Below, one piece after another: positions 1 through 44,216 of a stretch of 64,000 nucleotides of DNA; position 1 is the first letter of the stretch; each line of letters begins with the position of its first letter. A model generated the notes under the pieces. The model was not told the origin of the DNA and searched no databases. It saw only the letters and a list, made by a program, of their open reading frames with translations. Made by a program: the position numbers and the translations under genes. This DNA comes from Balanoglossus misakiensis (taxonomy: Eukaryota > Animalia > Hemichordata): assembly GCA_040954595.2 (NCBI GenBank), contig CM082591.2:2813258-2877257 (forward strand), written 5' to 3'.

Positions 1-408
1 ATTAAAAGGGTTTAAATTAAGGTCTATCTCAAGGACACAATTGAGGAAAAAATAACAATGCAGTAACATTCTAACAAAAACTAGGTTATGTAAATGGTGG
101 GTTTCTGTGTTTCATGGTTAGGTTGGCTGTAGATATCTCTTTAAAAACTAATTCTGAAATTTATTGTGTGATAATAACACCTCTCTGTATATCACTATGC
201 AGGAATTCTGTGTAAGCAAGTGCTTAGAATTTGAGTTTCAATTTAAACAGGTTTCATTATTGGAAATTTTGAATATAATTTGGTAAATTGAAAAGTGCTA
301 AAAATCTGTTTTCAATAAAAATTCTAAAATTGTTTCAAAACGATGTTTATACAGTGAATACGTTTATTTTATGGAAAGTAATTTTCAATTGATAATCGTA
401 TTTTGCAG

Positions 409-6314
<5,906 letters not shown>

Positions 6315-8605: not shown

Positions 8606-9255
8606 ATGGCAACCTTGGGCATCCCCCCTCCAGATGGCGGCTATGGCTGGGCGATTGTCTTTGCTGGTTTCTTGGCGTACTCTTTGTTCGGTGGCACTGG
8701 AATGGCGTTTGGTGTTTTGTTTGTTGCCTTTCTTGATGCGTTTGGGGCAAGCAAGGCTGAGACAGGTTAGACAAGATGGCGGAGCCATATTCAAAGGGGG
8801 GAGGGGTTGATCTTGTTCTTTGTATCAATGCATGTCTACATTGTATACAGATCTACTCACCAAATATGGTGGGTTTATACAAGAATCATGATTTTGATCC
8901 TGCAAGTGACGGTTTGGAGACTTGGTGCATGTTGTTAGGCGTGAATGTTGCATGCAAATGTTTGCTGGGTAGGGGCCTATGTGTACATGGACATGTATCT
9001 CTAAAATGACTTCTTTGGCTTTCTGACTTTGTTACAGCATGGATAGGGTCTATTTCTATGGGAGCTGGTGTCATTTTCAACTTCCTGGCTTTAGCTCTGC
9101 TCAAGAAGTACGAACACAGAACTGTTATGATGATGGGCGGCATTGTGTATGCTACCGGTTTACTTTCAAGTGCCTTTACGACCAGGATTGGACAAATATA
9201 TTTCACCTATGGAATCCTTGGCAGTAAGTTTCTCGAGTGTATGTATGTATGTAAT

Positions 9256-9286
<31 letters not shown>

Positions 9287-11165
9287 TATCTCTCTGTCTT
9301 ACATTATGTTTGTTTTTCTTTTAAAACAAGGTATCGGGACGTGGCTGATCATCTTGTCTGTAATGGAGATGGTCCCCAGATACTTCAGGAAGCGTCTTCC
9401 TTTGGCAATGGGCTTCATATTGGCCGGGGGTGGCGTTGGACAGGGTGTGATGTCTGTAACGATACCGCATCTCTTGGATGCCTACGGTTGGCGAGGCACT
9501 CTAATTATATTGGCAGCAGTCAATCTGAACCTGTGCGTTGCCGCTTCATTGTTTAGACCGGTTACTCAAGACAGACCAGGTGCGAAGGAGGACCCCGATG
9601 AAGTTACAGAAGGCGTCAATAACTCCTTGCGCGACCAAAGAGGAATTGGACATAATCTATCCACAACCTCGCAAGATATTAGTTCTGTAGACAAAGAAAA
9701 AGATAGTCGCGGGACAGAGAAGGGAAATAATCGCTCATTTCTTGAGAATATCAAAGCTCTATCGCCTGATTGGTCACTGTGCTGTTGTCTCCCGTTTGTC
9801 TTAATAGCCATCTGTGGATTGTTTCGTTCAGCCGGAATGGTTTCAGTTGTTTCTCACTCAGTAAGTACATGTGGTCCATTTTGACATAATCTAATATTTA
9901 GGTCTATTGTTATATACACTAAATTCGATATCATTCTTAGCGCCCATCTTGGTCTATTTGAGCTGTTGTACTTATATATCACATACAATTTACATTTGTA
10001 TATGCATAATCATTGCAATTATCTGACTTGGAACATCTGGGGTTGTGCCTGTCAATCCACGCGAGCATATTCAGTTAACGTTTGGTATGATTTGTGTTTG
10101 TAATACCACATCCAAGAATAACGTATTTGAAAAAGTGCATGCACGCTATGCTTGTCGTTGTGCAGGTCAAACGAGGAATGGAATACGGCATCGCCAATAG
10201 CCAGATCTTGCCAAGTGTGCTGGGTATAACGCAAGCAGTTGGACCGGTTTTCTGGGGCTTCTTTGGTGTGAGGGTCAGAAAGATTAAACCGATTATTACA
10301 CTTGGTGCAACCTCGGCAGCTGCTGGGATTATATGCTTCGCTAGCATATTTATGACAACATACGCAGGTTCGAGATTTAAATGGACTTAATGTCCCTGAG
10401 ACTTTCCCCGTTCCTTGGTGTAGCCTATGTCCAAAGAAATAGCGCTTTTGGCAAATTACCGGTACACTTTCAACCAGGGCAGTTTACACGCCTTATCTCA
10501 AATGAGAATGACCCTTGACTCTGCGATAATGTTCCCCACGATTTGTATCTTCAGGCCAGATAATTTATATGGTGCTGTTTGGTACTTGCATGGCGTGCAT
10601 TGTACCCATGCATGCTGTAACCATACAACTGATGTTAGACGAGCAGCGCATGGGCAGTGGTTTGATGTTCGGTTCTCAGGCGATTGGTATAGGCATGCTT
10701 CTAGGACCTCCCTTTATTGGTGAGTTTCTCTGTGACGAGATGTCCTAAAACATCCACGTGGTGTAGCAGACTTACACTATCTGAACAATGTACTTCACCA
10801 TCTGATGCTTTCTAGGAATACTTGAGTTTGTTACATATTTGTATCTAGTTGAAAGGGCAGACAATGTGGACGGTTGCTAGCAACACCTGTACCGAGCTTT
10901 GGAGACAAATGATACTATATCCTATTGCCTAGAGGTCTTTACTTTTGTTTTTAATTTCCTAACAGGCTGGATCCGTGATGTCCAAGGCCACTACGATGGA
11001 GCGTTTTGTGTCATCGGGGCGATGTTTATAGCCACGTCCGTGTGTGTCTTTCTCGCAGCAGCGGCAGATAAGTACACAAGGAAGAAAGGCAGATATAATG
11101 TTGATGTCGTAATGTCGGAGGCGGTTGTTACTTTGAAAGAGGACAAAAGTGAGAAAGTAATATAA
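8606..11165 (+). CDS. SLC16 / monocarboxylate-transporter-family MFS protein, multi-exon
   Basis: N-terminal signature PPPDGGYGW, then FGVLFVAFLDAFGASKAET|AWIGS, RYFRKRLPLAMG, YGWRG..IL..LNLCVAASLFRP, GMLLGPP, GWIRDVQGHYDGAF. Coding exons at about 8606-8765, 9038-9223, 9331-9860, 10166-10367, 10555-10719 and 10966-11165. Confidence 0.93.
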
Positions 11166-11977
11166 AGCCCCTTCTCGTTCATATATGCCTTTTGCAAGTC
11201 ACGTTTGTCTGGCTACCATTGGTAACTAGGTGATCAGAACGATTTTGATAAGCGACGCAGCAGGAATACGTCTAGTATTACAAATATTTGACAACTTGTA
11301 CACTTAAGGAGACAGATTTGACAACAATATTTTGATGGCTTCGGGGGAGAGGTCAAGCAATTGACCAGACTGAAATTTATGATTGACCTAATCGATATGC
11401 ATAGTTGACCTGACTGAAACATAAACATACGGTCGATATAGCTTTGTTAGATTTTGCTGCCTTGTTGCAAACTGGTGTGACCGTCTCTTGTTTCACGTCA
11501 TTGCTTGAGAAAAAACACGCAAGCTTGAATGTAGAAAGTGTTTATGTAAAATGGCAAACGCACATGCCGAGTTAACAATAGCATCACAAAATCAAACTAA
11601 TTACATTATATTTAAAATACAACAATACACACTATTAGGAAAATATAAAAACGGCCGCATTAAAATAAGTTACTGGTTAATAACCCGCCACCATTGATGA
11701 AAACTGAGATGTGACCGGATGTGACGTTACACTGACACACCAGTGGAACAAAGAGGGCGGGCTACCCAAAGCTTGTCTTCCGGTGTTGGGTGGTACATGT
11801 CAATGAAAGGAAGTCCGAAAGCATGTGAAAACGGAGTGAGTATGATTCTTGAAGACATTGTTCCCCAGTGAGTCGATTTGCCCCCTGAAACGTGAAATTC
11901 ACAAAAGCAGAAACCAAGGAGAGCCAGTCCAACACTCTCGTCTTCGGCGCGGCGTCATTCTAGTGACATCCATGAAC

Positions 11978-14228
11978 TTACAATGGCGGCGGCTTTTCTG
12001 AAGATGAGGAAAGAGAGAACTTGTTACAAAAATCTCTAACAAGCTCAAATTGAAAGCAAGATGATGCAGCCATAAATGATCGCCAAGTACAGTACAGAAC
12101 AGTACAGTACAGCAGGAAAAGCAACCCCATAATGACTTACCATAGCAGAGAGACTCGTCTTCTCCGTCTGGACAATCATTCACATCGTCACAAAACTTGT
12201 CAGACGGAAGGCACGTTCCATCACTACACGCGTAATCCGGGTAACAGGGACCTGTGTGAAGACAAATAGTGACGTCAGTCATCCTGTCATTTGTATTGTC
12301 TAAATCCATGGCCTCTTAACCTGGCAACAGTAAATTCTTTTCTGGGAGCGGAAATAGATGGCTGTGGTTCGAGAGAATAGTAATTTGAAACAAGAGCGTC
12401 GCCCTCCATGTACTCACAGTTGATCTCGTCACTGGCATCCCCGCAGTCGTTATAAAAATCGCACTCTTGATCACGTGACACGCAGTTACCGTTATCGCAT
12501 GTATAATCCGGAATGCATGGAGCTGAAAACAATAAGATTTACATCATATTATCAGTTTTTTAAGTTTGGATGTTTAGCTCGCCATCCGCCCCTTTTTGAT
12601 AAAGTTCTGCGTTGCTATACGTTTCCCTGTAGGTTTGTCTGATGCAAATAGCCCCCGTGACCATTGTTAGTGAATGACCGACTTTAAGGATTAGAAGCCA
12701 TTTTCATGACCCATATGTGACCTTTGCATCCTGGAGAAGTTTGTAAATTCAACTCACATGCATATTGGCAAACGGATTTGAGAGTCGTATTGCAGTCATC
12801 GTCGTTCCATTCCAATGATGGCCTGTGAAAAAAATTCAAAAGAAAATTGTTCTTTGATAATTAGGCAGCTTAGTGCGAAAATCTGCCACTGTGCACGACG
12901 TGTCAACAAGATTTAAAGGCCCATGCTTGTTGACGTGGGCGTTTCCAAATATATAAACAATATACTTTTTGTCAGTGCACGGAACTGTTTACTAAGAAAC
13001 AACAGCGGTAGAATATGCCCCTTTAACGACTGGCAATGACTATAATAGGATTGGGGACTTACACAATCTGACCACAGTCCTCCACTCCATCATTATCATT
13101 GGGCTCGCCGTCTTTCCAGTATGTGAAGCTGATGGGGCTACCGTCTTCGTATACCCATATTCCTTCTTCAGTAATATCATTTAAGCCAAACCATATTTTG
13201 CCTATTAGAGGTTAAACGTGGCAGACTTGTATAAAAGTTAACTTTTGATGTAAAAGGCGAATATATTGTTGTATGCTTTGTAACCAGACTCTGGTTACAA
13301 AGGTTTACAGATTCAGTCGTGTGCGGGCGCCCGTACAGGTGCCGGAGCGCCCTCACACGACTGGATCTTGGAATCTTTCAGTCTTATGAGATTGTAAGGG
13401 AATGAAAACTACCTCGCAGCCCTTTTTTCCAATCTATGTGACGATATCTGTTGTATTCGACATCGGTATGGAATTCCGCCAAAGTGGCACCGTGAGAGGC
13501 ACATTGTGCAGCCGCATCATGCCAATGTAACCTGGTGCTAGTAATAATATATTTGTATGTATCTGCAATGAAAAAAGTACATATGTTGTAAATAATGATT
13601 AATGAAGACATTGTTGTAATATACCTTCGATTTTATCATACATACATACACACATACATAGTACATAATATATACATATACACTGTACTTACTTCGACAC
13701 AGTCTGTTTGGCTCAAAACTTTGGCAGGAGGCGACTCTGCTTGTACTGTTGGATGCGTCATACCAATACCAATTGGCCCCGGCAGCCGGATTCACCTCCC
13801 AACAAATCATGTCGTACTCCTCGCAAGTAGAAAGCGACAAATTCAACGTCAGGAGGGTACCGTTAAATACCACTGAGGTAGACGGTCCAACTGTGTTTTC
13901 CTCACTTTCCGTTGCCGTGACGACGGCATCCACCAGCGGGGTTGTTCCCTCTGGGTTGAAAGGCGTGCCCCGACTAACTGAAGCAGTGATGCGGAATAGC
14001 TCCTGGTTGTTGCCAACGATTTTACCGGTGTTGACATTGCCCGTCTCCAGGGTGAAAGAGAAATTGTAGGTTCGGGTGATTCCCATGATTAAATAGAATT
14101 GTTCAGAGTCGTGGTTTATCATCGCTGTTGGTTTATCGACGCTGACTGAAAATAAGAAAGGAGGTGTTCGATAGGTTGATAACAGTCGTAACGCCAATAT
14201 TCATTCATTCTTCCATCCATCCATCCAT

Positions 14229-14261
<33 letters not shown>

Positions 14262-16054
14262 AATCAATCAATCCATCCATCCATTCACCCACTCATTCAT
14301 TCTAAGTCAGTCAGTCAGTCAGTCAGTCACCCATCAACCCGTCCACTCCTGAGCTCACTGACCACTAGCCCCGGTCACTTGCACCAAATACCTTTGCACT
14401 GGTCCAAAGGAGTACACGCTGTGGACCTGTCATTTTCATCCCACACCCAGTTGCTGCCGTTAGCCGGCATCACGTCTACGCACGCGTGGCTGTATTCATG
14501 GCAACCGAGGTTGAACAGGTCGTAGTCTGAATACACGATGGCCACGTCTCCAGTCGAACACTGCGGGCATACTTGCACAGCGCGGTTGTCCGTTGCGAAC
14601 GCCTCCACCTTTACAGACGCGGATGCGCCACCTATACTGTTGGCGATGTACATTCGGAAATCAAAGAGAGCATTGATGTCGCCCGCAAACGACGCAGTAT
14701 GTGTTCCCATGGCGATGTCGACATTCAAGTGAAATGCAACTGTTCTGCCCATGTGTACCACCAGCGGTTGGTTGTCCATTTTACCCAGAGTAATGGTACC
14801 GCTCAGCTGATCTTAAATTAACAGCACAATCAGAAATATATAAAACAGATATTTCTACAGAAAGTTAACAGACGCGGCTTATTAACAACATTCGATCGAA
14901 TAATCAAGTAGGAATTGAACTCAGAAGATAAACACTTACTTTTACACGTCTGTATTGGTATGCAAATCGTTTCCTCATTAGAGTCCACCTGTGCTGTGGC
15001 GGAATTGGCTGAGATGTCCAAACAGAGATTCCGTCCTTCACTGCAGGACAAACCACTCAGGTCAACTATCACACCAACGTCTGGAATAGTAATCGGTGCG
15101 CTACCAATCGATATGTTCACCAAAGAACTCGGAACCAAGACAGTGGAATATATTCCAAGCCTGGTGCCATCTTGGTCTGTTATATACGATGTCATATTAA
15201 ATAAGTCGTCAGCCCGTGCGGAAATGACATCACCCGTGGTTTCCATGTGTATAGTAACGTTAAGTTTGAGATCTTGCATGGACCCCATGATAACTTCGAT
15301 GTCGCCGCCACCAGCCCACGTTAACGAAGCATTGCCCCATGCAATGCTCGTACCATCTTGCAGTTTTCCATGTTCTTATAAATACAAATAAATAACACAT
15401 TAATTATACGATGGTCAGCTGAAACTCGCGATCGTCTCTCGATAAGCTCGTTTACATGATATACTTTTCGTTCCTAAACTCACATGGGTTTTAAAAGTTG
15501 TATGTAGTGATTAAAATAAATGTACCTGCAATTTCGGTGTTTGGTCTGCAAACTGAAATAAAAATAAAAAGATAGGTGGACACAATTATTCACAATTAAA
15601 ATGCACATATATTGATTTGATTTGACTTTTGGGGGCGATGATATTTTCATGAACCTTCAATTGCATTCAATTTCTAGTGTTTGATTTTCATAAATTACTG
15701 TACATGGATACTTACATTTATAAATCAAACCACTCAGCAAAGCCAGCGATGCCAACGCACCAATCAGAAAGAATATGGCGAGACGTCTTTTCGACTCTCT
15801 TCGTCTCTTTGTTTGAATTTCGTCCTTACTGTCCTGTACGAATAAATGAAATGAGTCGGAGGGTGTGTGTTTATGTGTGTATATGAACTATATATGTATG
15901 TGTGAATGTGAGAGAGAGAGAGAGCACATGCACATGATACATGCACATGATAGAGTGTAGGACTATGTACGTTTGCGCAGTTATTTCATATGGCAATTAC
16001 AAACACTAAATTCGTCCTACGTACCAACATCGAACTGGGGACTACCTCAGCCAT
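11978..16054 (-). CDS. Type II membrane mosaic protein: short tail + TM + 3 uncharacterised repeats + C-type lectin (EPN/WND) + 2 LDL-receptor class A modules
   Basis: Phase-compatible exons read [10 protein letters not shown]|[39 protein letters not shown]|FCRPNTEIA|. Repeat exons lie at 15356-14940, 14811-14392 and 14145-13693. CTL exons read [41 protein letters not shown] and WNDDDCN..KSVC. LDLa exons read [34 protein letters not shown] and [34 protein letters not shown]. The last exon is EKPPPL*. The first exon is the least certain. Confidence 0.85.
13276..13367. repeat. Two adjacent short inverted repeats in an intron (probable MITE/SINE remnant)
   Basis: ctttgtaaccaga-c-tctggttacaaag (13276-13302) and gattcagtcgtgtgcgggcgc...gcgccctcacacgactggatc (13310-13367). 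Confidence 0.6.
14212..14330. repeat. Compound microsatellite (CCAT)n/(CAAT)n/(CAGT)n
   Basis: Tetranucleotide arrays visible directly in the intron. Confidence 0.9.
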
Positions 16055-18501: not shown

Positions 18502-21500
18502 TTACGGCAGTTGGCCTTTCAATTCGAGGTGGAACAGACCTAGAGAACGAAAAGGAAAAACACATTGAGCGTTTTCTAGCAAATCAGATTTTTCACACTA
18601 TCCATTGTTTAGTCGAAAGTGTGATGTCTAGACGTAGGACGCCATGAGGTCTGTCCAACGAGATGCCAAAACGAGTCAGCTCACTTTATTACCATAAGTC
18701 AACATAGAGGGCAGTATTACAGATAGTAATGTACAAGGCATTCATTGTAACATATATTGCAGAAAGTAGCCAGTCGAATGAACATAGTTTAAAGAATATG
18801 CACATGAAGACCGAATATTTATAAACTATGAAATTTTGAACAGAATCTTACCTGCAATGGCCGACTGGAAGCCCGCGTTATAGTCCAGCGTGACTTCATT
18901 CTGGTAATAATCACTGCGTATATCTTGGTAGTTGTCGTTGATATCCGGTCCACCTACCATTGCACCGTACAGCACATGCGCATTGGGTTCGTCTGCGCTG
19001 TATGTCCCACCCCAAGTACACGGTTCCGGAGGGAGGGGGCAGGAACTGAAAGCAAGAAAATACTTGAGTGAGAAAAAAAAACGTTGCATCAAAACTCGGC
19101 TCGAACGAAAGTGTATAGCCAATAGTTTCTGTGCCAAAACCAAGGAATCAACTGTCGCGAAAGACATTGATCTGGGCATTATAGTATACCTGCTTCGATG
19201 ATGTGCTTGAACTGGCGGGTTGTCGCCAAAACCATTGATGAAACTCCGCCCTGTCCGGCCAAGGGCGTAATGTACTTGAGATTTTGCGAAGTCACGGTAT
19301 TCGTCCACGTTTAGGTTGTTTTCCGCAGCTACTAGGGCCAGAAAGGCCGTCGACACTGGAAAGAACAACAGACATGGGTTAAATTTGACCGGCTTTGAAC
19401 CAGAGCTGATGAAGTCGGGGGGGGGGGGAGGGGGGCAATTGAATACTTAGTCACCACACCACAGCATAGGTCTGATTGTTTTAATAAGCGTTCATGATTT
19501 CAAATGATAATGGGTGGACGTTGTGTTTAAGGAACGGTGAATCTTCCAGCTATGGTAGAAGTTAATGTATTTCACTCTCTTATAGCGTCGATTTTGTACA
19601 TGTATATGAATATATCAATACCAGTTAGGAATTATTTATGGAATCAGTCTGTCAATCCGTCCTTCCGTCTGTCTGTCTAGTTCTGTCAAATTACCTGCGT
19701 AGCGCAAGGAGCCCCAGTCGTCTCTGAACACGAGTCCCTTTGGAGTGTGTGCAACCTTGCCACCCGGCAGCCACTCATCAATGTATTTGGTCACTCGTTT
19801 TGAATACTCACTGTCTCCAGTCGCGTTATACAGCAATAGCTGCAAGGGAGATAGATGAAAGTGTTTGCATTAAATATTGTTGATTCAAAACATAGGGGAG
19901 TATATATCTTCCATTGCGATACATATTGACGGTCCTGATGAATTGCCGAATGAATAACCAGAGCTCCAGCCATGCAACACTGAAGAAACGTATTGTATCT
20001 AACTAAACTACTTCAACCGACTTACGTGAACGCCGGGATCTACGATCGACCAGCCAAACGCCCACGCCCGACCATTCGTCATGTGGGGATAAAACTCTTC
20101 GGTTTTGTTCAGGTAGATACTTTCGCCGGTTGCTTTGTACAGCCAGATGGACGCCCATCCGAGCTCGTCGTGATAATTAGACCCCCTGTGAAGTATATGA
20201 AAACGTATAGTTGTGGTGCCATTCTTTGTACTTGTTAAATTGTGAGTGACACACAGATTGTGGAATTGTTGTTTGTGGACGAAACTTTCCCAAGTATTTC
20301 TGTCTGTGTGTGTGTGTCTGTCTGTCTCTTCAGTTCGTTTCTCACAATGAACTGAGCGACGTGTCACGTACAGCGCCCTCGTGGCCAAAGCGCTGAAACT
20401 GTTATAACCAGTCTGCGCAGTCTCTACTGATCATATTTATAACTGCTGTACGCCACCACTGGCAGTATTTCGAAATTCCCTGGCAAGCATGATTCAGATA
20501 CTAGTACTTACGAAGTATATATTCCCTTGCCTTCTGGAAGACATTCCCTGTAGTACCCTCGGTAGTTGTCGGCAAATTCGAACAATATCTTGGATTCATT
20601 GAGCAACAGTTCGGCATACTCAGGATCTGAGGGGATAAAAATGGCGATGTTCAAAGGAAAATAAAGATACACATTTTCGGTTGTTTCGCACACATGCGCG
20701 TTACGACCTAGAGCATTTTCACGGACATTGGGGAACACGTTGAGGAAATTTAATGGAACTTACCGTAGTCGCGGAATATTATGTGAGCGGCCGCCAAAGC
20801 TGCCGACGCGTCACCAGCCAAATCGCATCCGGGAACCGTGGTATTAATTTGGTAGGCTGGTCTGGGCATATCCATGTCTTCAGGTCTTCCCCAGTAATTG
20901 TGATCGAGGTCTTTATCGGCAACCTTGGAGGAGAAGAAAACAAGATGAGTTCTGTTTATTGATGGTGGTCGTGGTGATGGTGATCATGGATGATGATGAT
21001 GATGATGACAATAAGTTTATTAATTTACTGAACGAGCAGTAAATATTTGACACATACCTGCGCGTATAGTTCGTACTGGCTCGTGTGGGATTTCAATATG
21101 AAATCAGTTCCCCATTTTATGCAGTCAAGCATGTACTCAACTTCCTCAGCTGTTTCATAGGAGTCGCGGAATTCCAGAAAACCCCAGCTTAGCACTCCCA
21201 TACTCCAGGCCATCGGGAAGAGGGACTTGATGTGGTCACCCGCTGTAATGAGGAAAAATCGACATCAAATGCCAGAATTCAAACGCCTGGCATAGATTAG
21301 TACACATGAGCACGAGTACTACGGCACTAGTGATGACGTCACCCACTTACCGTCGTAATAGCCGCCCGTCAGGTCCTCCCCGTTTCGCCCCGAGTCGTTC
21401 ATCGCCGAATCGTTGCGATAATAGATGCGATTGGTCGCCGGTAGCTCGCCAGACCGCTGGGCTTCATAGAACAACAGCGACTTGTGAATGATTTCAGTGT

Positions 21501-24500
21501 AGTTGAAACTGTCAGGGTAGTTGTCATCTGATGAAGCAACACAAACAAAACAGTGTAAACAAGTAATGACTAGAACACTTAAATATTATTTTTGCTTCAA
21601 ACTTGTTTCTTTCCCTCACTATCTCCTGCATTCAAGTATATGGATTCACTAACGCGCCATATATATATATTTTTTCTAATGCCCAACTTTCATCTCTTGC
21701 AGCCTAGCGCCATCACTGGCTCATTCTGGTTTAAAGGGCAACCAGGCGGCTATTGATAATGGGAGGAGATTGGTAAGTAACAAACTCTTATAAGATTGGT
21801 GAAATAAAACGAATGATAAAATGGGAGTTATAACTGACTGATGACAGTGATTTTTTTTCTAATTCCCAACTTTCCTTTCTTGCAGCCTGGCACCCCAACT
21901 GGCTCATCCTGGCCACCGATTAGTCCAGCAAAGGGCGACCAGGTGGCTATTGACAATGGAAGGTGATTGGTAAGTTATTACAAACTGTGTTAAGATTTGC
22001 GAAATAAAAAAATATGATAACATGAGAGTTATAATAACTGATTGATCATGACAGCGAAATGTATATCGTTTGCTTTCCAGTGAAACCAAGCGCCTAAAGC
22101 GGGCTTCGAGAACCGATTGAGTACCCGGATGCAATAACAGGTGCTGACGTCACGTTGGAACAGGTATGTGGTCGTATTACCGTCTAAGAAATTATTGTGT
22201 AATCACTCCTATGTGTGATAATTATGCGTAACTACAGAATCAATGCACATCAGAAATTTAAATTCGGTTCGCAAAGGCCCACCCTTCAGAAATCACTTCA
22301 CACTACAGACAATATAAGAGTCTAAGAGTGAAATATCGTCGGGTGTTAAAACTGTTTCACTATCCCAGGTTGTAGGCAAGATGTTACGGTCGCCAATTTC
22401 AAAAGGGCTACGTCACGAATCACATTGCTAGAATGTGACGTCTATGCACCTGTAGAACCCTGGTAGAGGGAGATGGAATCATTGGGAAATCATACATTGA
22501 CAAATTTTAACGTGGATCGCGAAATACGGTAACTAAACATCGCTGAGTGAATGAAGCGCGCTTTAATTTTGTCACATCATTACATTGATTTATCGACCAA
22601 AGCCAACCCTTATTGTACAGCTAATAGTTACTACATGTAATATTGATCGAGTTATTTTATTTTCATTCAAGTCGATTCTGGCCCTCTGGGTTATGGATGA
22701 TACGTGATTCATTCAATAGATGGTGGTTTATCAAACAAACCATTCCCTTTTAAATGGTCACGTTTTCCCAATTAACGCAATTGTTACAAGCAGCATGACA
22801 TTTCACTCTTAAAAGTTTCTGGGGGGTTTTAGTGCAGGGAAATTGTCTGCAGTGAGTGCTTTCATGGAGGGCTAGCCATTGGCAACAACTCGTATGTAAA
22901 AATCAGATTCAAGTTGTTTTCGTCTCGGTGCTTCGCTAGTTTTGAATTCGTTGGCACTAGAGTTTCTCGAATGTCCCGTTTGACAATCCCACCTGATCGT
23001 GCGGACCACGCAAAAAAATCTTCGATGCATGGGAATCAACCGCCATTACAAACAGACGCTGAGTACTTCGACCCCAGGAATTGCGGAGTTGCCAAGAGCA
23101 ATAACATATCAACGCCAATTAAAGTTTTACTGAGCCAGTGCGACTTTGCTGCGTTCCAATTGGGCGTGTAAGTAGTTCCACCAATAGCTTAACAATGGCA
23201 GTCGGTGTTTGCCATCGGATAGATTTATCAGTATCTTAATTAAACCACAAACTTGCACAGCACTTAATGATTCGCAACAAACTAACACACCTGTTCCAAT
23301 AGAGAACTCAATTGCCGTTGACGTCAGAAGTTCATTTAATTTTCTTGTAGTTAGTTCTTTGAAATTTAGCACCCTTCCTTTGTTTGTCTACATTCCCCCA
23401 CTATGTGGTTTATCATTGTATCTGTCCAAACATTGTTGGGTACGGGTTTGTTCTGTCCAAACATATATGTTTGCTGCGAGTTTGCGGTTAACTACAATGC
23501 GGATGGAGGATCTTGCCCAATCCTCAGTATTTCACTTTTGCCTCACGATGGAAAGGTCCTCTATTGTCGCATTATGTCGATATACTTAAATGAGAATTGC
23601 AGCTGTGTATATTAAGAGGTCTGCAACTTACCGCCCCCTGATAGGACCACAGCCAATGTCACGGCAACAGCAACCAGAGCGCAGCCTCCCGCAACGGCCC
23701 CCGCGATGGCCACCAGTTTTGCATTGGCTGCCAGCCATGTTGTCTTTGTTGCCGCTGAGGTCGCGGTGCCGGCCGCATTTGCTGCTCCGTTCTGCAATCA
23801 AACATTCCCATAGTGAATGTTAGAGATTGTATTGGATGGCGAGTGATGGGGAAAAAAAAACGCAGAGTGAATGAGACAGCAAGATTGTCTCGAATGTGAA
23901 ATTCAAAATGTCGCATGTTAGAAAAGCGATGGTCGATGGCTAATTCGGTTTATTTCTGTAACTAGGGACCTTCACGCGAGAAACGACACCATATCATAGG
24001 CATACAATAACGTTCCCACAGTTTTCATTAGTTGGTCTGGGAGAAATACCGTCGTATATTTCTTAGAATATATGGCAAGTATGTCGTGAATTTAGTCAAA
24101 ATAGTTTCTCTCCACATCATAGACATGCAACCATAGCACTTAGTGATATTTTTTCACTCCAACCGTCGTTGTTGGCCAATAGCGGACTGTCAAACGATAT
24201 GACGTCAGCTGAAACTATATGGTGTCGTGCGTTATTGTCAGGACTGTCAGTAACCCTTGGCTTCGTGTTTATTATGTTTGCCATGGTAGGGGTTATCGAT
24301 GACCAAATGGCATGTCTCTTGCGATTGTATTTTTGTAATGAGGTTTGAGATTGCTCTGAACCTTCACAAAGACAGGATTACGTGACACAATCCACAGAAA
24401 ACTTGGCACCAAAAGTTATTAAACTATCGAGTGTATGGCAAACAGGGCAACTTAATGAAATCACACACTGTAGGCAAAAATCAATCATTGCGAATTAAAC

Positions 24501-37507: not shown

Positions 37508-39618
37508 TTAGGGTTCTTCAACTGAGTTTCCGGTGAATGACTTCTGGGCCAGGCATTCGTCGAGGACGCCATTTTCTACAGACAAAAAAAGACGCTTGTC
37601 AAAAATATGTCCAATAATGTATATTTATACACATTTCAAGAAAACTGAGGTAGCTTAAACCTAGCCGTTAATAATTATGGTCATACCCATTCATATGCTG
37701 ATGTCCATAGGTCAAATATACAGTATTTTCATGGGAAGTTGTAAAGTGATGTAAGCTTTTTCGAAAATAGTAAGCATACACTGCCCCACATGTAAATGAG
37801 CTTAGTCTAGGCAAAGTCCCAGGTAGACAACCTCTAGCAATGGGCAAATCTTTTGACAAATAGCAGGTTTTGTGATGCAGGATGAAAAATAGACGACTAG
37901 AAGAAAGGTTCCATGATTTGTGGTTGGTTTCTGAATGCTTTGGTGTCTATATAGAAATTTCCTTACCTTTAAGTTCCATGTATGTGAGAATATCTTTAAC
38001 GACATCTTCAACATCGGTGGCTGTGTCGTATTCTAATGAACCACGTTTTCCGGCTAAGTTGGCAAAACAGAATCAAATATTTAAAAGATCATGTAGGATG
38101 ATTGGGTTTTGGTAACATATAAAACTAGAACCATCATTGTTACAGAGGTAATTGCTGTTAATAATCCATAAAAACAATTTAATAATCATGAAAACAAGGA
38201 CTTACTTTTACTGAAAATAAAAGGAGTCCACCTTTTGCCTTGTCTTCTGTTCGGTCCGCCTGCAACTGTTGAGAGGGGAGAGATCTTTAATTTAATCCAT
38301 TTGCTCTTTGATGAGCTGGTAAACAGTGTCTCTGAACCAGTGATCTTGCAGTTAAGATATTAAAATTGTTACTTACCATGGATAGAAAGGGGTCTAGGCC
38401 ACACGCCCCTCGCTCTTTTTTCTGTATCCCTCTGAAAATTATAGATGTGAATTTAAAGTTATTAAAGGATTACAATCACTTCTGTTAGTACAGAAATTGG
38501 TGATTTGTCAACTAGATTTACTGAACTGAAACAATTTGTTTTAAAGATCCATCATTTAACTATATCAAAGAAAATGTCAATGATAAAAAAATCTAGAACA
38601 AAAAGGTGATAAATGTCAGTTGATTAGGAAATGTGCCACGAGCAGCCAGTATATAATTTGCGAGAGGTCATCGCTCATACCGGTACTACAATTTCTCAAA
38701 CTTGATATTAAATATCACAAGTAGAACTGTGTCACGTCTTCCGAGTGACTTTGTAATCCGTCTATCTGTGTGAGCTTGCGGGAAGATATATGTAGTTTCT
38801 TCAGAAAACATCAATATTATACATCCATATCTTATTTGATAAGAGAAATATTATAACCATAGTGTTTGCGCATCTGCTTTTACAGATATTTAAGCCGAAT
38901 AGGTTGGAATTTAGACCCTCCAAATGAAAGCCTCATTATCGTTCACAAAGTCATTTTAAGGCTGTTGTAATTGACTCAGCTGATCACGCTAATCGATAAA
39001 CGCCAGACTTTATTACTTTTCAACGAATAACAATGATTTCCAAGTATTTACATCCCTAGAGGTTCATCTAGTTTTCCTTCCCTTGCAACTATTCTACAGG
39101 TTTTGTTTGGAATCATAGGTGGTGATGTAGAGTCTATAGTGTGACACTTACTCTGCTTCTGATTATACCCCAAAGTTTTATCCATTAAGGATTAAAATAC
39201 TTGCATGCAACATGTCTGCCTAAATGTACATAACTGCAGTGTGTCTACAACTTGTCAGACTACATATATGTGTGTCTGCAATCTATCTGCTGAAATCTGT
39301 TGGCTGTCTCTGCAAAATGTCTGCCTGCATAACAGTGTGTCCACAACATGTTTTCCTATCTTTCGGCGTGTCTGCAACTTGTCAGTCTATACGCCTGTGT
39401 GTCTGGAACCTATCTGCCTATAGCTTTTTGTCAGTATGTCTCCACCAGTCATTACTGTTAACAGAAAGTGGCAGTTCTTGTGTGACTATAGAGCAGTTCC
39501 AAAAACCCTGTCCATGCGGCATGTCATGACAAACTTCTCTTACCTTTTCAACGGAGTCTGCGCTGATAGCCATGACTGTGAGAGCAAGGAGGAACCCACA
39601 ACTAATTAACAGCTTCAT
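37508..39618 (-). CDS. Neuropeptide precursor, galanin/spexin-like (114 aa, 5 coding exons)
   Basis: Exons 39618-39544 (75 nt), 38431-38377 (55), 38265-38206 (60), 38053-37967 (87) and 37575-37508 (68), all GT-AG with phases 0,1,1,1, give MKLLISCGFLLALTVMAISA-DSVEKR-DTEKR-ARGVWPRPLSIHVAGGPNRRQ-GKR-WTPFIFSKT-GKR-GSLEYDTATDVEDVVKDILTYMELKENGVLDECLAQKSFTGNSVEEP*. It has a signal peptide, dibasic sites, two G-K-R amidation signals and a GMAP-like motif. The precursor call is strong; the family call is inference. Confidence 0.85.
39205..39420. repeat. Degenerate short tandem repeat (gtgtctgcaa/acttgtcag motifs) in the first coding intron of the galanin-like gene
   Basis: Recurring gtgtctacaacttgtcag, gtgtctgcaatctatctgc, gtgtccacaacatg and gtgtctgcaacttgtcag units. 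Confidence 0.6.
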
Positions 39619-42600
39619 CTTGAAAGACTTGTGATAGTTTCTGGAGAAAGGAATATAGAGAGGTTCTGTATTAGCCTTAATTAGGTTCTGTATTAGCCTT
39701 AATTACCCCAAGTTGCAATTAACCACAAATTCAGAGCCTCTAAAAATTAAAAGTTGTATGTGATTGTCAATTGCTGATTCCACGGGCACATGCTAGAGTT
39801 GTAGTACAGGTGTATATAGAAGCCATGTTCTGCTCAATCAAGCATATCAGATTGCTAATCTACTTCTATATACGAAGACAAAAATAAATGCATTTAGACT
39901 GATAAGATGATTGCAGAATGAGTATTTTATTCGCTCGATGATTAGATTAATAATGTTCAGAGAGAGAGCTAGACAGAGAGAGATAGAGAGACACTCAGAC
40001 AGACACGCAGACAGAAAGACCGTTTGTGTCACTCACTTTCCTATTTCAACACGTGCCTTTAATTTCTCTGCTGCAGTACTTAAAACTGAAATGCCTGATC
40101 ACACATTCAACACACACAAGTCAGTAAGACGAGTTTGTATCGGCAAATCAGGCAAGTTCCTCGACAGAAATGACTGCGCTTCTCCGGGATTACGCGCGTA
40201 TTCATTATCTATTCAGTCAACGATCCCTGTGAAGACACTTTAATCACGGAACTTCTCTGCAAGGGCGAACGCCAAAACGGTGGGCTTAAACTATGTGTAT
40301 CGCTGACTTCCAATTAAAGCCATGGTCTGCAGGTTAATGATCGCTGTTGGGACACATCCTGGCATAGTTAACATAGATAGCCTGTGACAGACTGACAACT
40401 TTGATTAAATTTGCTCTCTCGTTTTGAGGTTTCTTGACAAGAAAATCCTTTTCCACTTGATGCATTCTCTTAGCGATATTAAGTGAAAACTCTCCATAAC
40501 CTACATGTTTGTAAAGCTGCCTACAGATCCACTTGCATACAATGTTAGGAGTATGGGTAAAATGATAAACAGACCACTTATTTTCAAAATACACAGCCTT
40601 ACAGAATGCAATCAGACAATATTAGTCGACTGCTTTGGAAAGAGTGGCATTGCCTTATCTTATCTGATATGGTATCTAGGGTTTTCAGTGTTAAAGATAG
40701 GCTAATTTGATAACAAGAACAAGAAAACACGTAACGCTTTGCGTTTGTTACTTTTTCGCCGCAAACACCGTTCTCCCATAACAGCATTCTTTACGCCCGT
40801 CGGTCATTTTCGCTTCTTCCATAATTGATGTAATTTCCTAGCGGATTAGTTTACTCAAGATAGCATCGAGTCGATTACTACTTTGAACCAATCATCGACT
40901 GTTCCGATCAGGTTTCTCTGTGAAACTAGTGATTTCTGATCGAACGCGAATTGACCACCGAAATGCAATCTTTCGAAGGCACGCCAAGCTGACCTTAGGA
41001 ACAAATATGCACATCTTTTACTAATTGTTATATGCTACACTTGTATCGAGGTCACAGCTTTCTGGGGTGGCTTAATCGGTCCATTAAATAAGGCTAGATG
41101 TAAATGTAGCTTCCTTTATAATGTGTATTCAAGCTTGGTACAGACTACAGGTTCTTGATTAGTTTAATTTGTTTTGATAGGTTCTTAACGTAGGCTAATT
41201 GCTTTCTGAGGGATATCTTAGCGTGGAATAGTCTAGGCTGTTTTGCTCTGCTTTCGTGCATGAGAAGGGACGTAGGGAAGTCTTGTGGCCTACCGTATAA
41301 CTTCATTTGCGAAGTAAGAAGCACGCATTTTTAGATTTTGTGGTTGATAAGGCACCAGAAACGGTGAATTTGTGATTCGTTATTTTTACGGGTTGGTGAT
41401 AAATGCAATGAAGTCGAAACAGACAGTTATCGCTTGAGTGAAAGATTTTAAAGACATAACACGCTCTAACGTAATTTCCACACACACTTTCATGCTCGGA
41501 TTCGCGCAATATCCTTGATGTCTTCGTTGTAGTAACACAACATAGTATGCATCTGAATAGATCCACACTTTACCCATTAAGGAATTGCTTTAGGAGTCAT
41601 TGAGTCAAGGCTTTAGAATGCTAAAATGGTATAGTAGCCAGTGATTTAAAAAATCCTGTGGGGATATTACTTTAGGATATGTGACTGTTTAAATGTTTGA
41701 TGCCTCTCTTTATACTTTAAACCCATTTAATGCTTAAGAGGAGCCATGAGAAACCTAACAATCGATAGGAAACGACTTGTAAGAAGGGAAATGTTTATAT
41801 GGAAATTTGCCAAATAGACAAGTAATTGTATGTCACATTTTTTGTTTTACTTTTCATTTGCACCTTTTATTAGGTAGCTGTATAGTATGAAACTCAGTGT
41901 AAATGTCTTAACACAGCTAGGATGCTGAAACGGCCTTAACAATAGCGATCACCCACTGTGTATATGTCGCGACAAAATCTGACAATGGGAACTGTACACG
42001 CCGCACCTTCTGGGATATCACTAAACTCCATTAGTCATTTTGCGATGCGTCTGTCACAGTTCTCAAACAGGCCGAATATTTATCATTTTCCGTGTGTTTC
42101 TTATCGAGATATGCGTTAGATGGGGAACACGCAGATCAGATAGAATGACCATAGTTTATGACCCATTACCTTGACATTTGGTCCAGTCAAAGCGAACGAA
42201 TCGCGCTTTGCTTTGGAGTGTAGGTTTAGTCTGTTTGCTGTATTCTTCGAGTAAATACCACATGAGAAGATTGTGAAAGCTGATGGACGCAGCTTATCGT
42301 AAAAGTGACATGTTTGTTCTGTATGATGAGGTAGGGCATACCGTTGTTGTTTAAATATCATTTCGGCAATCCATCATTACGTCGCGTTCGTTTTTCTCTC
42401 TAGTATCACTGTAACGTCTCTCGTCACTGTCGTCATGTGTGAAATTTCGTGATTAAAGCAAAACTGACAATTAAAGTCTCACCTGTGTCACAGGTGTGAC
42501 TTCACTACTTCCGTCAGTCAAAATTAAGTAATCCTTCAAAAATTTCCAGTTAACCAAAGTTCTTAAATATGCAAATTAATTATGCAAGCAACGACTACCA

Positions 42601-43954
42601 AAATCCAATCAAGTGTGGATCTTCACCACTTTGCATGCTGCATCAGTTTGATGATTTCAATAGCAAGCTTCTTATATGTTAGCGCTTTTTATTCCGTGGG
42701 TTTGTATCAAAATAATCTGCGTTGCTTTCACATTCCTCGGTGTACAAAGTAATGGTTAAACAGCTGACGATAACACGGGAGTGATCATTTTGATAGGGAA
42801 AAGGTTAAGACGAGACTTTTCTTATATTGTTACGCGATTCATGCAAAATTGACCATTATTGGTCTCCCTAATGGCACATTTGCCATTACTTCTAATCGCC
42901 AAAATGCCAAATAGTTCGGTTCTACCACTCTGTGACATCTACTTGATTTTCCCTGATTGAAACGATTTATTTAGCTAATATCACTTTGGTCCCAGGTACA
43001 ACTGACTGGTGTGTACGCCCACTTATGTTGTAATGCCCTGTCATTTTGCCTGTGTTCCGGATTTGTGTTGGAGATATCGAATCGTTATTTTTATTCCAAC
43101 TGATAGTGTCCAACGTCACTCCTGACTCTTGTCATCTTGCAAAACTTCTCAATGTTTGCAATGTTAGGGTGTCTTCAATTACTATGCATCTTCTAAGTAA
43201 AGGTCACCTATGCATTAGCCTTTCCTAGCTATGACTTTCTAAGGAATGACCGCCTACAAAGATCTTGTTGGAAAAGGTTAACAGCCAAATCCTTATGACC
43301 GATGGAAAGACATGCGACCACTGCTATTTGCTAGTTTTTAGCCGTAAACCAACACAGGAAGACATGATGGACAGACAATAATGACGTAATGATACACTTT
43401 CCTTTGTCTCTTGTACTGAATGTATAACAGTATATATCCTTTGAGACCGACCCATCAAATATAATTTTTCGTATGTACTTCCGTCCGTTTACATGGTAAT
43501 TGCCGGCAAGATAAAATGGTAGTTTTTACTGGTGATATACTAATGGTATTAATAGTGCCTTGTTAAGGCATGTTACAATGAAAATGCCCAGCTGCTTCAA
43601 GTTCCCTTTAATAGTCATAAGCAAATCTTGATCATTGAACATCTGGGCACGCTGTTTTAGATAAAGCGCGTTGGTTATTCCTTTCTTCATCAAAACTGTC
43701 AGCTCAGCAGGTTTGAACTGAAGTCACAGACTTTGGTGTAACTTGGTTTCTTGCTACACTTTCTGTATACGCTATTAAGAATAAGCTAGTGCGGTCCGGG
43801 TTTTTGTGGTGAATGAAAGAAATAATCACTGTCCACGAGTTGTTTATGATGTAATTTTACCATGATATGACGCGTAAAATGTTACATCGTTCAGTTTGGG
43901 GCTACTTTCTCTACAAACACAGATAATAGAAATATAATTTTTAAACACACTTAC

Positions 43955-44216
43955 CGAAAAGTATGAGGTATAAAATATATGGCTTCCAAAAAGTAGCTCC
44001 CGTCTCTCGTAACTTCGTTCGTTCCAACTCTTCAGTATCAGCACGCCTCAACACCAGACTCCGCGTGGTCTTTTATAGCCGGGGTGTTGTGTGATCACGT
44101 GACGTGGTCGTCGGTCCCGCCCCCGTACTCGTAGAGAACTAAATCTCATTTGAGCTCAATTGACGCAGGAGTTAACCTCACATTCGATACGCTACACAGT
44201 CCCTTCTGTGACGTCA
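43955..44216 (-). promoter_or_regulatory. Putative promoter and non-coding exon 1 of the galanin-like gene
   Basis: Minus-strand TATAAAA (44071-44077), TCACGTGA/TGACGT (44095-44105), GC box (44116-44123) and full CRE TGACGTCA (44209-44216). A strong donor cg|gtaagt at 43955/43954 could splice to the acceptor ctttctccag| at 39640, 22 nt upstream of the ATG. Confidence 0.55.

Follow-up and report, generated by a model that had tools for sequence, protein, structure and literature searches.

The existence of galanin-type signalling in non-chordate deuterostomes has been implied by receptor trees since 2013. According to a 2017 review, the sea urchin genome contains galanin-type receptors whose peptides were unidentified (PMC5860471), and galanin/allatostatin A (AstA)-type receptors have been reported in hemichordates or in all deuterostome lineages (PMC4489612, PMC6475428). 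The question raised by the locus described here, located in a 64,000-nt stretch of the Balanoglossus misakiensis genome (hereafter the window), is whether it encodes a precursor of ligands for such receptors. Initial annotation of the window, made from its letters, suggested a galanin-family precursor: five short exons splicing in frame into a 114-aa prepropeptide with a signal peptide, EKR and GKR sites, two amidation signals and a C-terminal segment resembling GMAP.

The spliced window sequence joins five minus-strand exons, extending from position 39618 to 37508, in frame into 114 codons and a stop (Table 1). All four introns have GT-AG borders, with GTAAG donors and with acceptors located behind a pyrimidine tract, and the intron phases are 0, 1, 1 and 1. 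An alternative acceptor of exon 3, situated 6 nt downstream, would also keep the frame (112 aa), but the RefSeq model of the Ptychodera flava orthologue described below uses the upstream acceptor, the same one that had been picked at the outset. The tblastn search with this orthologue detected no second copy of the gene in the 64-kb window. An extra GTAAG donor is present on the minus strand at position 39151, inside intron 1; it was rejected as part of the gene model, since the one upstream acceptor checked by eye gave no open in-frame exon.

Table 1. Positions of the peptide gene, its candidate upstream elements and two neighbouring paralogous genes in the window; the promoter was seen in the sequence, its function being predicted.
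Feature	Position	Strand	Remarks
Candidate promoter	44077..44216	-	
Perfect CRE palindrome	44216-44209	-	candidate promoter element
CRE/AP-1-like element	44167	-	candidate promoter element
GC box	44123	-	candidate promoter element
E-box	44101	-	candidate promoter element
TATA box	44077	-	candidate promoter element
Likely non-coding exon 1	43955..44046	-	about 90 nt, start approximate; no ATG; GTAAGT donor, first intron base 43954
First coding exon	39544..39640	-	acceptor before 39640, 22-nt leader, ATG at 39618; coding part 39618-39544 (75 nt) for the predicted signal peptide (roughly residues 1-20) and the first part of the pro-segment; donor phase 0
Coding exon 2	38377..38431	-	55 nt, entered in phase 0 and left in phase 1; holds the EKR site and peptide 1 up to its 12th residue
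Coding exon 3	38206..38265	-	60 nt, entered and left in phase 1; holds the remainder of peptide 1, the GKR site for amidation and cleavage, and peptide 2
Coding exon 4	37967..38053	-	87 nt, entered and left in phase 1; holds the second GKR, an acidic spacer and the amphipathic GMAP-like segment up to its 12th residue
Coding exon 5	37508..37575	-	68 nt including TAA stop; remainder of the GMAP-like segment, acidic tail
Candidate poly(A) signals (AATAAA)	36882 and 36835		downstream of coding exon 5
Tandem paralogue A, exons	56265-56177, 55438-55346, 55017-54869	-	last exon unsure
Tandem paralogue B, exons	51773-51700, 50863-50774, 50167-50023	-	

A comparison of exon 4 alone against 1.84 billion proteins revealed a single match at E-values up to 0.001 (E = 6.5e-06), a 117-aa 'uncharacterized protein' of P. 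flava (P0121), which has no Pfam domain on record and is accompanied by a 118-aa isoform (P0122; RefSeq XP_070565269.1 / XP_070565259.1). The 117-aa protein is identical to the window protein at 90 of 117 columns over its full length, with every cleavage and amidation site kept, and tblastn places pieces of it on all five exons; the identities for coding exons 1 to 5 are 21/25, 15/18, 18/20, 22/29 and 14/22. Conservation is highest at the cleavage sites and in the predicted peptides, including both GKR sites (3/3 and 3/3), peptide 2 (8/9) and the pro-segment (10/11), while peptide 1 and the GMAP core keep 16/21 and 15/19 residues, respectively, and the tail is the least conserved part (8/15). 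The two P. flava isoforms differ by one extra and one changed residue located exactly at the exon 3/4 junction, as from a tandem (NAGNAG) acceptor, which suggests transcript support in P. flava; this difference appears to mark an intron that is common to both species and spliced in P. flava.

The possibility that short frames form this chain by chance, without being a gene, has a vanishingly small probability: the gene model of B. misakiensis is derived from DNA only, but the independent P. flava gene model preserves every one of the five exons, collinear and in frame. Judged by this conservation, the chain is a real gene and the observation is confirmed, the five proposed exons yielding the in-frame 114-aa prepropeptide with GT-AG borders throughout and an exon-by-exon match in P. 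flava.

No further homologue was found beyond these two species with a word-based homologue search, an insensitive tool whose only candidate (1 of 1) was the query itself. The same kind of search with the exon-4 ORF returned 14 candidates, none of them scored, and missed the P. flava protein, so that its blank result says little about absence. Other hemichordate, echinoderm and chordate homologues were found neither with the word-based search nor with the exon-4-only search of 1.84 billion proteins, and consequently there is no bridge of intermediates leading to galanin (GAL) or spexin (SPX).

The upstream region suggests a further exon. About 4.3 kb upstream of the coding part, on the same strand, lies a candidate promoter with a GTAAGT donor about 120 bases past its TATA box, and the acceptor matching this donor sits 22 nt before the ATG. 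The composite of CRE, TATA box and donor occurs once in the window, on the strand of the gene; it was encountered, anywhere and on either strand, in 13 of 200 simulated 64-kb windows, a frequency to be read with the pattern having been defined after it was seen in the window. Together, these elements make a non-coding first exon behind a CRE/TATA promoter likely, giving six exons in all.

The organisation of the protein is that of a secreted prohormone. Its N-terminus is hydrophobic, with Kyte-Doolittle 9-mer means up to 2.8, and the signal peptide was judged from hydropathy alone. KR pairs are located at residues 25-26, 30-31, 54-55 and 66-67, the last two being preceded by Gly, and an RR pair at residues 50-51; both predicted peptides have KR in front and GKR behind. 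The GMAP-like segment occupies residues 81-99, where it had been placed initially, and is split by intron 4. The predicted EKR and GKR sites and the two amidation signals likewise held up, as all of them are kept in P. flava, and the hydrophobic N-terminus agrees with the predicted signal peptide. AlphaFold2 modelling of the P. flava protein without alignment was poor (mean pLDDT 49), with helices at residues 79-89 and 97-103.

By established prohormone processing, the precursor would enter the regulated secretory pathway and lose its signal peptide near Ala20; prohormone convertases would then cut at KR 30-31, 54-55 and 66-67, and carboxypeptidase trimming and PAM would turn Gly53 and Gly65 into amides. 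PC2 and PAM are reported to be expressed in Saccoglossus (PMC10508912). The predicted products are an amidated galanin-like peptide 1 of 21 aa (residues 32-52), perhaps trimmed further at Arg33 or RR 50-51, both of which are conserved; an amidated spexin-like peptide 2 of 9 aa (residues 56-64), with its WTP start and GKR end; and a 47-aa GMAP-like C-terminal piece. The identity of the protein as a neuropeptide precursor is strongly supported by its sequence features. The peptides would act on a G protein-coupled receptor (GPCR) of the galanin/AstA type, the most likely receptor group. More tentatively, cAMP/CRE-controlled expression in neurons or in endocrine cells of the gut may be envisaged, as may a modulatory function in feeding or in the gut musculature analogous to that of galanin, spexin and AstA.

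To which family the precursor belongs was assessed with Pfam and ESM Atlas, both run on the P. flava orthologue and not on the spliced protein of the window. Among 24,736 Pfam families, the only one reported for the 117-aa protein was GMAP (PF06540), with an E-value of 0.11 and 13 bits against a cut-off of 25 bits, residues 82-100 aligning with profile positions 28-46 of 61. GMAP was also the sole Pfam match of the 118-aa isoform (E = 0.1) and of a 37-aa C-terminal stretch (E = 0.042), the scores ranging from 13 to 14.4 bits relative to the same cut-off. Scoring with the GMAP profile, which the initial annotation had proposed as a check, thus singled out the expected family, but at a score below the cut-off. 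The match is worth more than its E-value suggests, because the family had been named beforehand and few Pfam families are peptide-precursor families.

The Galanin (PF01296) and Spexin (PF15171) models gave no match at E-values up to 10 with the orthologue or with the 37-aa C-terminal stretch. They likewise matched none of the five exon-bearing ORFs of the window, nor did any other Pfam family, when these ORFs were scanned separately; HMMER filters drop weak matches, and the intron-split GMAP-like segment is incomplete in such scans. Among PDB sequence matches at E-values up to 10 there was no galanin chain, only noise from ubiquitin, isoamylase and radical-SAM entries. Because the mature peptides matched neither profile, the gene is filed as galanin/spexin-like and not as a proven member of the family.

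ESM Atlas ranked a galanin and GMAP cluster first, with a score of 0.92 and 171 of 256 features, the threshold of the tool being 170. Two CCAP clusters followed at 0.91, and a spexin-2 cluster was sixth (0.89). The tool attached a caution flag, as the top family accounts for only 4 of the 10 best family hits, a situation that it reads as usually indicating the wrong family. With exon 4 alone, only unnamed clusters appeared among the rows from 0.9.

Sequence motifs were also compared. Positions 2, 9, 10 and 12 are common to GAL, SPX1 and SPX2 (PMC6593056), and are occupied by W, Y, L and G in spexin (PMC6593056) and in cichlid galanin (PMC4992253). With Trp36 taken as position 2, positions 9, 10 and 12 of peptide 1 are His, Val and Gly in both species (W-x6-H-V-x-G), this Trp being encoded in coding exon 2. 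The strict W-x6-Y-L-x-G motif is absent from the precursor. The relaxed motif, its residue classes having been relaxed post hoc, was obtained in 566 cases when residues 32-67 were shuffled 200,000 times, and among 1,095 background Trp residues it was present at 3. The Trp is not at position 2 of the predicted peptides but at position 5 of peptide 1 (or 3 after trimming), and in peptide 2 it is the first residue. With Trp36 setting the register, intron 2 comes at position 10, and not after 13 as in GAL, so that the motif and intron registers disagree by about four codons.

These observations have to be weighed against the possibility that the gene encodes a genuine neuropeptide precursor from outside galanin/spexin, of a family confined to hemichordates or of another one, its likeness to GMAP being a convergent C-terminal amphipathic helix of the kind frequent in single-copy precursors. 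Such an origin would accord with the sub-threshold GMAP score, with near-ties of CCAP, GnRH, corazonin, CCHamide and neuromedin-B clusters in the Atlas list (0.88-0.91), with mature peptides that have no detectable profile or PDB match, and with the restriction of the protein to two species. It is nevertheless unlikely, since Pfam reported no family other than GMAP, which had been predicted in advance, ESM Atlas as a second method puts galanin first, and galanin/spexin is also indicated by the exon layout, by the WTP start and by the spacing of W..H-V-x-G.

A more specific alternative is that the gene encodes the unidentified ligand precursor of hemichordate bombesin-type receptors. Bombesin-type receptors without a known ligand are described in Saccoglossus, and in bombesin-type genes, too, the peptide is interrupted by a phase-1 intron (PMC12002301); neuromedin-B clusters are present in the Atlas list at 0.88. 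However, a phase-0 intron is conserved in the region coding for the C-terminal part in bombesin-type genes (PMC12002301), whereas both C-terminal introns are of phase 1 here, which makes a bombesin-type identity unlikely; with no Bombesin Pfam match for the orthologue either, this assignment is highly improbable.

Membership of the galanin/spexin family by descent is the favoured reading, and a likely one, drawn from several weak, partly independent lines of evidence. The original proposal of a galanin-family precursor is supported by the weak GMAP match, the top Atlas cluster, the relaxed motif and the exon layout; it does not extend to a match with the Galanin or Spexin profile, and the precursor contains two predicted peptides. 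The whole account, in which an acorn-worm member of the galanin/spexin family releases two amides acting on a galanin/AstA-type GPCR, is somewhat less secure but still probable.

The receptor assignment could be different even if the family is correct. The precursor may be of galanin/spexin type by descent while its peptides signal through a sister receptor, a hemichordate AstA-type or kisspeptin-type GPCR, and not through an orthologue of the galanin receptor (GALR). The absence from the peptides of the strict Y9/L10 core and of Trp at position 2 would be consistent with such a partner, as would reports that hemichordates have AstA-type receptors beside the GALR and kisspeptin receptor (KISSR) clades (PMC4489612, PMC9263205). 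Against it, neither peptide ends in FGL-amide or RF-amide, and in the one invertebrate case considered, Ci-GALP of Ciona uses a GALR-clade receptor (PMC6475428). A sister receptor is decidedly unlikely, even more so than an origin in another peptide family.

Among the papers listed in the literature searches, which for three sets of results means the top 40 of 660, 394 and 84, none described a galanin/spexin precursor of a hemichordate or echinoderm; subscription journals, theses and supplements might contain one. In particular, none is mentioned in the accessible portions of PMC9400282, PMC5818035, 10.1101/265579, PMC4131245, PMC13554239 and PMC4992253, and the three peptide motifs and both P. 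flava accessions are absent from the literature text searched. According to a 2025 paper, galanin emerged between hemichordates and chordates (PMC12749109), and this dating, after the hemichordate split, speaks against a galanin identity here. It had also been suggested that invertebrate deuterostomes have such receptors without a cognate precursor; this holds for non-chordate deuterostomes (PMC5860471) but not for Ciona, which has both a galanin-like peptide and its receptor (PMC6475428).

The genomic neighbourhood was inspected for additional hints. A Myelin regulatory factor (MYRF) gene occupies positions ~400-6310 on the plus strand, as shown by 14 tblastn segments with the P. flava protein. 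Among the best 120 of 1,216 matches, one of its exons is 89% identical to P. flava, 80% to Glandiceps talaboti and 76% to Saccoglossus sequences; one sturgeon-labelled record also reaches 80% and is flagged as a contaminant. These values make a ptychoderid acorn worm other than P. flava the most likely source of the window. MYRF lies 31 kb from the peptide gene in the window, which provides a weak synteny hint: in human, MYRF maps to 11q12. GAL maps to human 11q13 (PMC12811797). In P. flava, the records of the MYRF protein and of the orthologue of the peptide precursor give a longest contig of identical length (62,999,500). No GPCR or kisspeptin-like neighbour was detected by a Pfam scan of 118 of the 129 other ORFs of at least 72 aa beyond position 15400, whose matches were limited to exons of glycosyl hydrolase family 9 (GH9) and three hits below the cut-off.

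Other genes of the window include a multi-exon GH9 (cellulase-type) gene at ~18800-21600 on the minus strand, an exon of a major-facilitator (monocarboxylate-transporter-like) gene at ~9250-9900 on the plus strand, and, at ~11900-15400 on the minus strand, long exons coding for an LDL-receptor class A repeat and unassigned Cys-containing domains, probably of an extracellular protein. Two tandem paralogous genes for small secreted precursors are located on the minus strand at 56265-54720 and 51773-50023. Both encode a protein with a signal peptide, a Gln at the N-terminus and a Cys whose codon is interrupted by a phase-2 intron; a C..GSW..C loop precedes GGG-IGI and a KR site. None of the four exons tried had a Pfam match. 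They presumably resemble lophotrochozoan excitatory peptide/GGNG, of the CCHamide-endothelin-bombesin receptor group. These paralogues could be another unreported hemichordate neuropeptide family; an antimicrobial peptide is possible as well.

The predicted novelty of the peptide gene is the presence of two amidated peptides on one GMAP-bearing precursor in a non-chordate. Galanin-type receptors outside chordates, for which a candidate partner has long been missing, would gain one with this gene, and since both peptides are short, defined and synthesisable, the decade-old orphan-receptor question becomes directly testable on cloned acorn-worm receptors. If the family assignment is true, the galanin/spexin precursor moves back to the deuterostome ancestor, which bears on the relations among galanin, spexin, kisspeptin and AstA. 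A more far-reaching and rather doubtful scenario is that this ancestor had one gene with galanin-like and spexin-like peptides in tandem before GMAP, which would be kept whole in acorn worms, with GAL and SPX as its divided descendants; the two amides would then be the missing ligands of ambulacrarian galanin-type receptors, and the GMAP-like exons a probe for echinoderm and amphioxus genes. The advance would be comparable to the recent discovery of bombesin-type signalling in starfish (PMC12002301).

The gene was also compared with known systems. Like GAL, the gene has five coding exons after the predicted first exon, an intron-split peptide and the GMAP-like part on the last exons. The human GAL gene would match in finer detail as well, with intron phases 0, 1, 1 and 1, a 55-nt third exon, and a last intron that splits the Glu codon of L-K-E in GMAP, all of them features of the present gene. 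GAL consists of six exons, of which the first carries start sequences and the next the signal peptide, with the pro-segment over exons 2 and 3, the mature peptide split after residue 13 and GMAP over exons 4-6 (PMC12811797, PMC12749109). The exon order is the same in B. misakiensis, with a likely non-coding first exon and peptide 1 split after residue 12. At the protein level, the precursor is similar in size to vertebrate preprogalanin (114 versus 123 aa) and shares with it the order of signal peptide, pro-segment, KR, intron-split peptide, GKR and GMAP-like C-terminus. Unlike preprogalanin, it has two predicted amides, the second being located where GMAP starts in GAL; His and Val replace Tyr9 and Leu10 in peptide 1, and the GMAP score is below the cut-off. 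The conserved 13-residue N-terminus of galanin, as given for the cichlid sequence (PMC4992253), is not recognisable by profile.

Peptide 2, encoded by coding exon 3 with an intron interrupting its final codon, resembles spexin. It starts with W-T-P, as spexin (SPX1, SPX2; PF15171) does after its first residue, is split between two exons, and is followed by G-K-R as in SPX2. The residue immediately ahead of G-R-R in spexin would be interrupted by a phase-1 intron, and peptide 2 is interrupted in the same way just ahead of GKR. It differs from spexin in having 9 residues and not 14, in having no residue before the Trp, and in reaching Y9-L10-x-G12 only with a 4-residue gap, and the precursor has no Spexin Pfam match.

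AstA precursors are typically multi-copy. The AstA peptides are FGL-amides (PMC4489612), and the protostome AstA/buccalin receptors belong to the same GALR/AstA-R/KISSR group (PMC4489612, PMC9263205), whereas the precursor described here contains two unlike peptides without the FGL-amide ending. A functional precedent is Ci-GALP of Ciona, which activates the GALR-clade receptor Ci-GALP-R with an EC50 of 1.29 nM (PMC6475428): it is a galanin-like peptide of an invertebrate deuterostome too, but of a chordate.
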